A DNA stretch of 64,000 bases, taken from the NCBI GenBank assembly GCA_964354795.1, contig CAYHBB010000037.1, positions 46,197 through 110,196 of the forward strand. Direction: 5' to 3'. This document shows, in pieces, positions 50,207 to 52,019 of this stretch. The number at the start of each line of letters is the position of its first letter. The stretch's first letter is position 1. The notes beneath the pieces are model-generated. The model was not told the DNA's origin, searched no databases, and worked only from the letters and a program-made list of their open reading frames with translations. The DNA comes from an uncultured Planctomycetales bacterium. GTDB taxonomy: Bacteria > Omnitrophota > Gorgyraeia > Gygaellales > Profunditerraquicolaceae. The translations under genes and the position numbers were made by a program.

Positions 50207-51691
50207 TTAGATTGGGTCAACATCTACGGTAATTATTATACCTGAATGTTTGAAATTCTTTAAGCGTAATTTAAGAAACTTTGTGGCCTTGACCGGATCA
50301 TCAGCGCTCAAGAGGATCTGCCAGCAGTAATTACCCCGCAATTTAGCCGGCTGAGCAGGCGTGACTGAAACCACTTTTATACCCTTAGATTGCTTACCGG
50401 CGCTTAATTTATCAAACAAAGCTTTTGCCGATTCCGTGGCTTTCCCTTCTTTGCGCGAACGCACTTTCACCAAAATAAAATGCTTAAAAGGCGGGAACTT
50501 TAGCTCATTTCTCTGCTTTAATTCCTCATCATAAAACGAAGTAATGTCTTTTTTATACAATGCCTGAAAACAGCTGTAAAGCGGAGAAGTAGTCTGAATG
50601 ACAAATTTCTTATTGGTTATACTTAAAAGCCCGGCCATGATGGCAAAGGTCTTTTCCGTCGAGCGCAGGTCAATGCGGTTTAAGGAATTATCTATCGCCA
50701 GGATCCCGGTCAGGTCAAAACGCAACCCCTCCTGTTTAAACACCGCACTAGTCGCCACAAAGATATCCGCTTCATTTAAATCTACTTTACTGTGGCTTTC
50801 GATATCTTTGATGCGCGCCTGAGGAAACAGCCGCGATAGCTCGCTTTCAATCTTCTCCGTCCCGGTACCGAAAAACTTAATATATCCGGCATTACATTCC
50901 GGGCACATCTTGGGCAGTTCCATTTTGAAGCTGCAATAATGACAAATAAGCTGGTTTTCCTTAAAGTGATACACCAGGTGGACGTTGCAGCGCGGACAGC
51001 GCATCACCTTGCCACACTTGTGACAGGCGGAATAAGTAGCAAAACCCTTGCGGTTTAAAAAAAATAGGACCTTTTCTTTCGCGTTAAGGCTGGAAAACAC
51101 CGTATCCATAAGGTATTTAGAGAAAAACGGCTTCTTGCCTTTAGAGAAGCTTCCCTCAAACTTCATATCAATGACTTTGATTTCAGGAAACTCTCTTGCG
51201 CGTGGGATCTGCTTAAGGATAAGCTTCCCGGACTCAGCTAAATTAATACTCTCAAGTGTCGGAGAAACACTCCCTAAAATCAAATCAGCATTCTCCAACT
51301 CACAACGGATTAACGCGATCTTACGGACATGATAATGCGGCACCTGATCCTGCTTATAGACAGAATTTTCTTCCTCCTCGATTATGATCAAGCCTAAGTC
51401 TTTAAGCGGAGTAAAAATAGCGGAGCGGGTCCCGATAACAATGCTCACCTCTCCGGCCCTAGCCTTTTGCCACTGCGCGAGCTCATCAGGAGATTTTCGA
51501 TAAATCAAGCCTATAGGAGCATTGATCTTCTCGGCTATCCTGTCCTTGACCCGCGACACAGAATCAACATCAGGCAAAATAATGATCACTGACTTCTTAA
51601 GCGCCAAAACTTCCTTGATCCGCTCAATATACACATCCCAGCGAAGCTGTCCGTCAAGATCATGGATCAAAAGCGCTTTAGTCTCAGGCAA
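50207..51691 (-). CDS. priA: Primosomal protein N' (PriA) helicase-core + Cys-rich + C-terminal region, with degenerate Walker A/B; separated from the N-terminal fragment by a frameshift
   Basis: Aligns by eye to E. coli PriA from the Walker A region onward. GVTGSGKTEVY becomes HDLDGQLRWDVY, DEEHD becomes EEEEN. Cys-rich CHKCGKVMRCPRCNVHLVYH...CHYC...CPEC retained. Confidence 0.75.
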   Translation of the reverse strand: MPETKALLIHDLDGQLRWDVYIERIKEVLALKKSVIIILPDVDSVSRVKDRIAEKINAPIGLIYRKSPDELAQWQKARAGEVSIVIGTRSAIFTPLKDLGLIIIEEEENSVYKQDQVPHYHVRKIALIRCELENADLILGSVSPTLESINLAESGKLILKQIPRAREFPEIKVIDMKFEGSFSKGKKPFFSKYLMDTVFSSLNAKEKVLFFLNRKGFATYSACHKCGKVMRCPRCNVHLVYHFKENQLICHYCSFKMELPKMCPECNAGYIKFFGTGTEKIESELSRLFPQARIKDIESHSKVDLNEADIFVATSAVFKQEGLRFDLTGILAIDNSLNRIDLRSTEKTFAIMAGLLSITNKKFVIQTTSPLYSCFQALYKKDITSFYDEELKQRNELKFPPFKHFILVKVRSRKEGKATESAKALFDKLSAGKQSKGIKVVSVTPAQPAKLRGNYCWQILLSADDPVKATKFLKLRLKNFKHSGIIITVDVDPI

Positions 51692-52019
51692 TCTTTTTCC
51701 CCCGCCTTAAGGCCTCAGGCAATGCCGTCTCTATTGCCTCCCCCCAGGAACAACAGTAATACTCAGAAAGCCTGCGGGAAAGCTTAAGCATATTAGCATC
51801 CAAAACAGGGCATTCATCGATCAACTCAATGATTCGTTTTAGTTTTTGGATCTTTGATTTCTTGGCGAGCTCTACTACGTAGGCGAGTGTCTTTTTGGGG
51901 CCAAACTGCACCCAGACTCTTGAGCCGGGCAAGATCTTCTTCTCGATTTCCCGGGGAACGATATAATCAAAAGGGCCATCGACTTTAAGCCCTACCACAA
52001 CTCTGGCAAACAGCATCAC
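51684..52019 (-). CDS. priA: PriA N-terminal 3'-DNA-binding domain fragment (111 aa) in a different frame from the helicase part
   Basis: FARVVVGLKVDGPFDYIVP ... VWVQFGPKKTLAYVV. Ends ALRRGKKIA* within a TTTTTCCCCC run. Confidence 0.7.
   Translation of the reverse strand: MMLFARVVVGLKVDGPFDYIVPREIEKKILPGSRVWVQFGPKKTLAYVVELAKKSKIQKLKRIIELIDECPVLDANMLKLSRRLSEYYCCSWGEAIETALPEALRRGKKIA

Follow-up and report, generated by a model that had tools for sequence, protein, structure and literature searches.

A conserved two-gene priA in Omnitrophota that probably encodes an ATPase-dead PriA

Although PriA of Deinococcus radiodurans has neither ATPase nor helicase activity, it remains able to bind forks and DnaB (Lopper, Boone & Morrow 2015, PMC4504706). 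In PriA of Deinococcus-Thermus, the Walker A lysine is replaced by arginine and the match to motifs I and II is poor (PMC4504706). The E. coli variants K230R (priA300), K230A, and K230D have no ATPase, helicase, or translocase activity, and they support primosome assembly and near-wild-type growth (PMC5778457); PriA K230A is routine in DnaB-loading assays (PMC10175261). A two-piece E. coli PriA has also been described, in which a suppressor of an insertion at residue 154 provides a start codon at residue 157, and this protein is almost fully functional (PMC5778457). Our literature search found no paper on PriA of Omnitrophota or on a naturally split priA. Here, we describe a priA that is divided into two overlapping open reading frames (ORFs) on the minus strand of a 64-kb stretch of DNA from an uncultured Omnitrophota bacterium (hereafter the window). 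This split priA is probably a genuine gene fission that is kept by selection and encodes an ATPase-dead PriA.

The two priA genes and their counterparts in other Omnitrophota

The first gene, priA-N (ORF1; Table 1), matches the Pfam family PriA_3primeBD (PF17764, E 8.8e-29) as a separate polypeptide. It aligns to residues 4-105 of the E. coli 3'-end-binding domain (3'BD) crystal construct 2D7E (105 aa) as well as to PriA of K. pneumoniae (4NL4), keeps the FDY pocket motif, and ends with ...ALPEALRRGKKIA*, which is ...ALRRGKKIA followed by TGA. The ATG at 52016, which the relatives use and which has a GAGGAG Shine-Dalgarno (SD) sequence upstream, is a likelier start than the mechanical alternative, a GTG at 52019 (51684..52019). 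Gene callers predicted the identical 110-aa ORF1 in the related loci L001 and L003. The second gene, priA-C (ORF2), is shifted to the +1 frame with respect to ORF1. Its score on TIGR00595 priA is 392.6 bits, above the family cutoff of 230.35, and it matches Pfam PriA_C, the PriA zinc ribbon, and PriA in the PDB (E 8e-67); the window protein scores under the cutoffs of the full-length NF0040xx equivalog models. A first, sequence-only reading of this DNA had described priA as split into two ORFs that a 1-nt indel would fuse. Its coordinates and frames are confirmed, and a one-base deletion anywhere between the TAA in the priA-C frame and the TGA of priA-N does fuse the ORFs. Like canonical PriA (TIGR00595), the pair contains the 3'BD, two RecA-like lobes, a Cys-rich region (CRR) with eight Cys, plus the CTD (C-terminal domain), and it keeps the priA-fmt neighbourhood. 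Unlike canonical PriA, it is spread over two genes and lacks a winged-helix (WH) domain, a P-loop, and arginine fingers.

The same split is found in the close relatives. We used the conceptually fused ORF1 and ORF2 as the query of a protein search, and the matches were Omnitrophota sequences named 'primosomal protein N''. The five closest clusters (96, 89, 71, 71, and 69% identity; sources NCBI, Logan, JGI, and ENA) are all 493-494 aa long, and the nearest full-length, fused protein has 66% identity and 627 aa. The two-ORF layout is present in 10 further independent assemblies with 69-96% protein identity, which come from an NCBI metagenome-assembled genome (MAG), two Logan runs, JGI, and ENA. 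In relatives whose contig includes the upstream region, a 110-119-aa 3'BD ORF overlaps the 493-494-aa ORF, which is in the +1 frame. Identity to the window is 96% for L001 and L002, 89% for L003, 71% for L004 and L005, and 69% for L006; among GTDB representatives, the closest is the MAG GCA_026387455.1 from Lac Pavin sediment (96% identity in ORF2). A junction-pattern scan of JGI metagenomes gave 10 matches. After six unrelated chance matches were dropped, four more split priA contigs and zero fused genes remained.

The junction is conserved in its reading frames rather than in its nucleotides. L001, L002, and L003 share AGGCGGGGGAAGAAAATTGCCTGA, and L005 is one base off (AGA for AGG) with TTG and TGA kept. 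The TTG...TGA overlap is kept in L001, L002, L003, L005, L091, L092, and L097, and in L050 with GTTGA. In L006, the TTG is kept and ORF1 extends 6 nt further. The L004 junction, GGGGAAAGGCGATAAATGGAGGATAA, has an ATG start directly after an in-frame TAA, so there is no frameshift window in this locus. The nucleotides of the junction differ (AAAAAG vs AAGAAA) while start, stop, and both frames are preserved, and the TTG is preserved as a codon where neighbouring codons vary. The homopolymer run beside the junction (Table 1) is broken up in most relatives (GGGGGAAGAAAA or GGGGAAAGGCGA) with the split kept, and the A5 run is not conserved; as judged from these alignments, the homopolymer is incidental to the split. 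In addition, about 13-20 linker residues that stand between '...LRKGK' and 'LIHDLDG' in the fused homologs are absent from the split genes, so a 1-nt error cannot be the cause of the split.

Both ORFs are under purifying selection (dN/dS 0.16 and 0.08). Among the split relatives, dN/dS is 0.155-0.157 for ORF1 and 0.05-0.12 for ORF2, and the deeper pairs are saturated at synonymous sites. For fused relatives, seven pairs gave a range of 0.07-0.16 in the 3'BD and of 0.04-0.16 in the core. Since the values of both parts are equal in split and fused relatives, the fission did not relax the constraint. Apart from the single conserved frame change, we saw no further stops or frameshifts.

Fission at this domain boundary appears, from the sequences, to recur across Omnitrophota. 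Among 80 Omnitrophota loci from a scan of GTDB representative genomes, L050, L057, and L081 likewise have a break that separates the 3'BD from the core, and neighbour-joining (NJ) trees place each of them beside fused sisters ({L016, L050} 86% and {L016, L018, L050} 100% bootstrap). Their junctions are all different: in L050, the core begins at a TTG in the +1 frame and the overlap is ATTGGTTGA; in L057, it begins in the -1 frame at an ATG within the overlap TAATGA; and in L081, it begins in the -1 frame at an ATG, with 14 nt of overlap. In a search with the L081 core, 16 of the 120 matches were proteins with only the C-terminal part (464-513 aa, 15 of them 464-490 aa), many of which, in the L081 clade, sit on contigs 40-550 kb long. 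In each of the four such cases that we looked up, the 3'BD is encoded directly upstream by a separate gene of 108-111 aa. The junction of L100 is a 4-nt GTGA overlap with AAGGAGG 7 nt before the GTG, and other junctions of this second clade are a GTG in L098 (GTGA overlap), a 13-nt overlap, and a 1-nt overlap. The N-termini of the cores represent at least five junction types.

The linker that is missing from the split genes often carries a hairpin in the fused ones. A perfect inverted repeat of 13-19+ nt is present in the linker of 10 of 50 fused genes, and the longest repeat elsewhere in those genes is 11 nt. These linker hairpins (ΔG -23 to -50 kcal/mol, z -7 to -12; Table 1) are in frame, have arms of 13-28 nt with cores GGGGACG(T/G)TTCT... 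or GGGGTCAGA..., and often have a flanking A-run and T-run, as a bidirectional terminator would. L057 keeps only a part of the right arm (GAAACGTC) of the hairpin that is found in its fused sister L066, which suggests that a deletion inside the hairpin made the L057 split. The linker hairpins resemble palindromic elements that insert into coding regions, such as the Rickettsia palindromic elements (RPEs).

The same hairpin family also occurs between genes. The window has an intergenic copy (…AAAGGGGACGGTTCT…AGAACCGTCCCCTTT…), and six other loci have intergenic copies (Table 1), which in several loci lie about 1.5 kb upstream of priA. This intergenic family is probably a terminator or REP-like element that is shared across the phylum.

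The former ATP site and the predicted structure of the core

We read the motif states of ORF2 from its alignment to 4NL4. At the pseudo-Walker A, R17 is the equivalent of E. coli K230, the catalytic lysine, W18 is the equivalent of T231, and the P-loop glycines are lost. In the subfamily of the window, L8, H10, D11, L12, G14, R17, W18, and Y21 are invariant in 15 homologs. In a wider set of 70 Omnitrophota homologs, 68 have Arg at the K230 position, the position after it holds W (50) or M (12), and Y21 is invariant. The former P-loop is occupied by a conserved replacement motif, L.HDLDG..RW..Y.

We surveyed the motifs in 193 Omnitrophota homologs, which consist of 73 GTDB loci and 120 protein matches. 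The P-loop pattern G.{4}GK[ST] was found at the canonical position in none of the 192 homologs checked (the match in P0109 was not located), and the motif VI pattern G[RK]xGR in none of the 193. Six homologs match the P-loop pattern; the five that were checked are chance matches elsewhere in the protein (four in motif IV, GKTLLFLNRKG, and one in NGKSAIVLL). At the level of sequence, the loss of the P-loop is a phylum-wide trait of Omnitrophota. The former ATP site is still conserved over the phylum, which suggests that it is kept for something other than ATP hydrolysis.

The other helicase motifs are affected to different degrees. In motif VI, both arginines are replaced, by L355 and I358, and in motif V, GTQ..KGH has become ATS..KQE. 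Motif II remains acidic across the phylum (D66/E6, E40/Q20, E73, Q28/E24, D47/N14), with Glu at the third position in 73 of 73 and Asp at the first position in 66 of 73. Motif IV (FLNRKGFA) is conserved. The lobe-1 loop VYKQDQVPHYH, whose counterpart in E. coli PriA is the aromatic-rich DNA-contacting loop (PMC5778457, PMC10175261), keeps Y, K, Q, Q, P, H, and Y without exception in 73 of 73. The window has the full set of eight CRR Cys, and these do not vary in 65 sequences. The sequence-only reading had called the Walker A, Walker B, and arginine-finger regions degenerate and the zinc-binding region intact. This holds for Walker A (DLDGQLRW, Lys to R17 and Thr to W18), for the arginine fingers (GRAGR to GLLSI), and for the Cys-rich region. 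For Walker B it holds in part: EEEEN does replace DEEHD, but the motif is less degenerate than was implied. The same reading took the motif degeneration as independent of the split, and this is not borne out as a decay in the window genome, because the altered motifs are conserved across the phylum.

A likeness to the ATPase-dead Deinococcus PriA had also been proposed, and the arginine at the K230 position, in the window and across the phylum, bears it out. Both proteins have Lys replaced by Arg in Walker A, altered motifs I and II, and retained DNA-binding elements; the Deinococcus protein presumably also keeps a part in reloading the replisome. They differ in that Omnitrophota is another phylum whose PriA also lacks the WH domain (about 600-615 aa when fused), has the new motif L.HDLDG..RW..Y, and, in several lineages, is encoded by two genes; moreover, the biochemistry was done on the Deinococcus protein only. 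The different architecture (no WH, about 610 aa) suggests that the ATPase was lost independently of Deinococcus-Thermus. Compared with E. coli K230R, the same change of the catalytic lysine has been fixed naturally in Omnitrophota. The E. coli K230 variants, in contrast, are laboratory point mutants of a canonical protein of about 732 aa (the length of 8fak_H) with the partners PriB, DnaT, and DnaC, whereas in Omnitrophota the whole nucleotide pocket is remodelled.

The WH domain (E. coli residues ~109-181), which the sequence-only reading had not mentioned, is absent. ORF1 ends where 2D7E ends, and residue 6 of ORF2 aligns to residue 218-234 of E. coli/K. pneumoniae PriA. In the fused relatives, only a linker of about 20-45 aa stands between the 3'BD and the core. 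An AlphaFold2 (AF2) model of ORF2 (m95de42ed8606), made from a 65-sequence alignment, has a mean predicted local confidence (pLDDT) of 88.7 and a predicted template-modelling score (pTM) of 0.83, and it keeps the strand-loop-helix at the former P-loop. A Foldseek search with this model returned PriA first. By a wide margin, the top match was 8fak_H, which is E. coli PriA in complex with a fork and PriB (E 2e-45, template-modelling score (TM) 0.89, root-mean-square deviation (rmsd) 3.1 Å), whereas the apo, ADP, and ΔWH crystal forms gave TM 0.66-0.74 and rmsd 8-9 Å. In 8FAK, the CRR has pivoted by about 85° and forms a pore around the lagging-strand single-stranded DNA (ssDNA) (PMC10175261); a 'CRR-up' state is described in PMC13594977. 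The E. coli ΔWH PriA (PDB 6DCR) has the 3'BD joined to the core without WH, which is the architecture of the fused Omnitrophota proteins (TM 0.73), but it is engineered and ATPase-competent, and the ORF2 model fits the fork-bound 8FAK better. ORF2 could be constitutively in a loading-competent conformation, or the similarity could be a modelling accident. The predicted 8FAK-like form fits a protein that needs the loading conformation rather than the unwinding one.

Proposed role and competing explanations

The genes priA-N and priA-C are co-transcribed. We propose that their products would be made in roughly equal amounts through translational coupling, and that the two polypeptides would reassemble non-covalently through an interface of the 3'BD, lobe 1, and the CTD. 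The 3'BD would capture the nascent leading-strand 3' end at abandoned forks, and lobe 1, the CRR, and the CTD would hold on to the junction of the fork and the template of the lagging strand. Without any unwinding, the complex would then bring in the replicative helicase and so serve as a fork-recognition scaffold that is independent of ATP. Recruitment of this kind has been proposed for Deinococcus PriA and is done by E. coli PriA K230R. Reassembly is plausible because the E. coli 3'BD packs tightly on the helicase domain (PMC5778457) and the engineered two-piece PriA works in vivo. That two-piece protein likewise consists of an N-terminal DNA-binding part and the rest as two polypeptides; its break, however, is inside the WH domain and not after the 3'BD, and it was selected in the laboratory and is not a conserved natural form. 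On our analysis, the product of the split priA is most likely a scaffold of two subunits that needs no ATP to recognise forks and to recruit the replicative helicase. The fission may recur because the linker, which is short and hypervariable, often has deletion-prone palindromic hairpins invading it, and because the codons of the conserved 'LRKGKK' would supply a ready-made ribosome-binding site.

Both ORFs could instead be functional but separate, with a free 3'BD as an independent 3'-end binder and the core acting alone without a complex. The E. coli 3'BD does fold and bind DNA 3' ends by itself (PDB 2D7E series), the ORF2 model is confident without ORF1, and the linker hairpins of the fused genes are a hint that the two parts are to some extent uncoupled. 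We nevertheless regard separate action as unlikely. In every split case, the two genes stay side by side with their order unchanged, and they overlap or almost overlap, which argues for stoichiometric co-expression. The 3'BD is also under the same constraint as in the fused proteins, and in E. coli it packs on the helicase domain and helps to form the surfaces that bind the lagging strand and SSB (PMC5778457, PMC10175261).

The structure of the junction bears on how priA-C is made. The priA-C TTG is 2 nt after the run GGGGGAAAAA, and the stop of priA-N is 5 nt downstream of this start. Since a TAA closes the priA-C frame upstream of the TTG, a start further upstream is impossible. The purine-rich SD-like element GGCGGGGGA is made by the codons of the conserved 3'BD tail R-R-G-K (R-(R/K)-G-K-K across the relatives). 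SD-like 4-mers are found upstream of 30 of 50 window ORFs vs 19.5% of background positions, and this excess indicates that the organism uses SD-dependent initiation. Start/stop overlaps like ATTGCCTGA are typical of translationally coupled gene pairs. We infer that the 8-nt overlap is a translational-coupling junction at which priA-C would be made by coupled re-initiation and not by recoding. An internal promoter for priA-C is not needed; in a promoter and terminator scan of 49000..54500, the counts were those of shuffled sequence.

Recoding was weighed against this, that is, programmed +1 frameshifting or transcriptional slippage at G5A5/AAA-A that would give a single PriA of about 603 aa, with the TTG not being a start. 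A tRNA-Lys on AAA could re-pair after a +1 shift in the window (GGG AAA AAG A), in L001, L003, L005, and L006 (AAG AAA ATT), and in L050 (A7), and the G-rich SD-like element just upstream is loosely as in prfB. There is, however, no conserved slippery sequence. L004 offers only ATGGAGGA, which is not slippery, and a shift-compatible AAA-A is absent in L004, L057, and L081. L057 and L081 start with ATG in the -1 frame, and L098 and L100 have the GTGA overlap with a canonical AAGGAGG (L100: AAGGAGG-N7-GTGA). As L004, L057, L081, L098, and L100 have no such site, +1 slippage is not the conserved mechanism. The putative shift site is followed in the 0 frame by an ordinary sense codon, neither a stop nor obviously slow, and the TTG codon is conserved while its neighbours vary. 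Folding of the junction RNA (51670..51730, minus strand) gave z +0.29 vs shuffles, with no frameshift-stimulating structure. The A5 and G5 runs are also shorter than the approximately 8 nt or more needed for efficient transcriptional slippage. We consider recoding improbable; slippage had been one of the three explanations offered by the sequence-only reading, together with a pseudogene and a sequencing or assembly error, and the lack of a conserved site, the TAA-ATG of L004, and the ATG and GTG starts with good SD sequences in other lineages count against it.

A decaying pseudogene, with priA being lost in a reduced, possibly host-dependent Omnitrophota lineage, would explain the frame disruption together with the lost catalytic motifs and the lost WH domain. 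It is very improbable in view of dN/dS of 0.05-0.16 for both ORFs at saturated synonymous divergence (0.16 for ORF1 and 0.05-0.12 for ORF2, in the range of the unsplit relatives) and of the lack of extra stops or frameshifts. The 'degenerate' residues H10, D11, L12, G14, R17, W18, and Y21 are themselves invariant in the clade, the AF2 model is confident, and FDY, the eight Cys, motif IV, and the DNA-contacting loop are conserved. A sequencing or assembly indel at the homopolymer in a gene that is really one intact ORF is hardly credible, since, although the frame changes within 3 nt of T5C5 and one base fewer fuses the ORFs, the same split recurs in ten other assemblies from different samples and assemblers, most with a broken run, and the missing linker is beyond the reach of a 1-nt error.

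Some observations weigh against a maintained fission. The fused L007 nests in the split clade, with 71% bootstrap to the split L005 and L006. The window clade has 100% bootstrap (NJ), and L007 (priA at 1687-3570, with a 23-aa linker) is the only fused priA in it. This may reflect one fission and a re-fusion, two parallel fissions, or a tree error; the 23-aa linker looks ancestral and not re-fused. Every sequence compared is a metagenome assembly. Finally, the window and most close relatives allow perfect re-pairing after a +1 shift on AAA-A, and low-level slippage that gives some fused product in them is possible.

A broader reading joins these points, and we offer it as speculative and rather doubtful. 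Omnitrophota PriA would be a minimal, ATP-free, WH-less protein that is pre-set in the 'CRR-up', ssDNA-encircling state, which E. coli PriA reaches only after fork binding. The L.HDLDG..RW..Y motif would be a new site, either a latch that mimics a nucleotide state or a dock for the 3'BD, the replicative helicase, or a loader. The two-gene form would be a heterodimeric restart factor, and the in-frame linker hairpins would be the mutational engine of the splits.

Gene neighbourhood and implications

The minus strand holds 50 of the 51 window ORFs of at least 150 aa, and the exception is a shadow ORF inside the glycosyltransferase gene. Envelope and sugar-nucleotide genes lie upstream of priA (Table 1), and the end of the glycosyltransferase gene overlaps the start of priA-N by about 32 nt. 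The order HAD / MGDG_synth / priA / fmt is kept from the window clade to distant Omnitrophota (L098 and L100). In L007, a gene for a 23S-rRNA-IVP/bAvd-like protein stands between priA and fmt. A toxin-like block sits between fmt and an ORF6N gene in the window, and its 146-aa ORF has a repetitive 'SSGNFD'-type sequence and a signal-peptide-like N-terminus. L001, which is 96% identical, has a Fic/RhuM gene in place of this block, which indicates a variable island between fmt and the ORF6N gene. DciA, DnaC, PriB, and DnaT were not found among the annotated ORFs of the window. An Rfam scan of the whole window gave no match at gathering thresholds and no tRNA.

Table 1. Coordinates of priA features, hairpins and neighbouring genes (window positions; positions with an L prefix belong to the named locus)
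Feature	Position	Strand	Description
priA-N (ORF1)	51684..52016	-	Stand-alone 3'BD subunit, 110 aa from ATG
priA-C (ORF2)	50207..51691	-	Pseudohelicase core, 494 aa, TTG start; helicase lobes 1 and 2, CRR, CTD
TAA in priA-C frame	51707..51709	-	Closes the frame 15 nt upstream of TTG
Purine-rich SD-like GGCGGGGGA	51698..51706	-	Ends 6 nt upstream of TTG
Homopolymer T5C5 (minus strand G5A5)	51694..51703	.	Plus strand TTTTTCCCCC, minus strand GGGGGAAAAA
8-nt overlap ATTGCCTGA	51684..51691	-	TTG (51691..51689) inside the priA-N end; TGA 51686..51684
Pseudo-Walker A	51638..51664	-	H10-D-L-D-G-Q-L-R17-W18; GITGSGKT replaced by DLDGQLRW
Motif II (Walker B)	51365..51379	-	E105-E-E-E-N109 replaces DEEHD
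Lobe-1 loop VYKQDQVPHYH	51329..51361	-	Aligns to SSYKQQEGWRYH of 4NL4
CRR	50894..51025	-	Four CxxC pairs C223...C266, two zinc ions; PF18319, E 1.3e-9
Degenerate motif VI	50612..50635	-	A-G-L-L-S-I-T-N replaces (S/A)GRAGRAG
PriA CTD	50213..50491	-	PF18074, E 2.7e-14; residues 401-493
Linker hairpins	L016:2449-2497, L018:2462-2497, L027:2397-2460, L058:2417-2482, L066:2427-2499, L071:2438-2480, L073:2435-2500, L074:2135-2198, L078:2408-2453, L046:2441-2493		In the linker of fused priA
Intergenic hairpin, window	41187..41237		ΔG -30 kcal/mol, z -8.9; between ORF6N gene and end of 2213-aa gene
Intergenic hairpins, other loci	L001:5434-5474, L014:963-1036, L017:991-1055, L033:586-644, L058:928-996, L078:922-974
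Envelope and sugar-nucleotide genes	51985..58996	-	MGDG-synthase-like glycosyltransferase, GmhB/PNK3P-type HAD phosphatase, GT2, DegT aminotransferase, two GT9 heptosyltransferases, ManC
2213-aa gene	41545..48186	-	SpvB, TcdB middle/N, FG-GAP and RHS-repeat domains; Tc-toxin/RHS-like polymorphic toxin
177-aa ORF	48189..48722	-	Beside 2213-aa gene; no Pfam match
146-aa ORF	48815..49255	-	Beside 2213-aa gene; no Pfam match

The window joins three features that each have a precedent, in a natural and conserved form, and what is new is the motif at the P-loop site and the recurrent two-gene organisation. For annotation, such a split priA should not be flagged as a frameshifted pseudogene, and its product should not be named a 'helicase'. 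PriA is the nearly universal initiator of replication restart in bacteria, and it is an open question why its helicase motifs are conserved, since E. coli tolerates K230R. Omnitrophota PriA is a natural minimal PriA and would be the second pseudohelicase lineage after Deinococcus-Thermus. It offers a tractable two-subunit system for the communication between the 3'BD and the core, especially in bacteria without PriB, DnaT, and DnaC, and it supports the view that fork recognition and scaffolding, not unwinding, are the indispensable activity of PriA.

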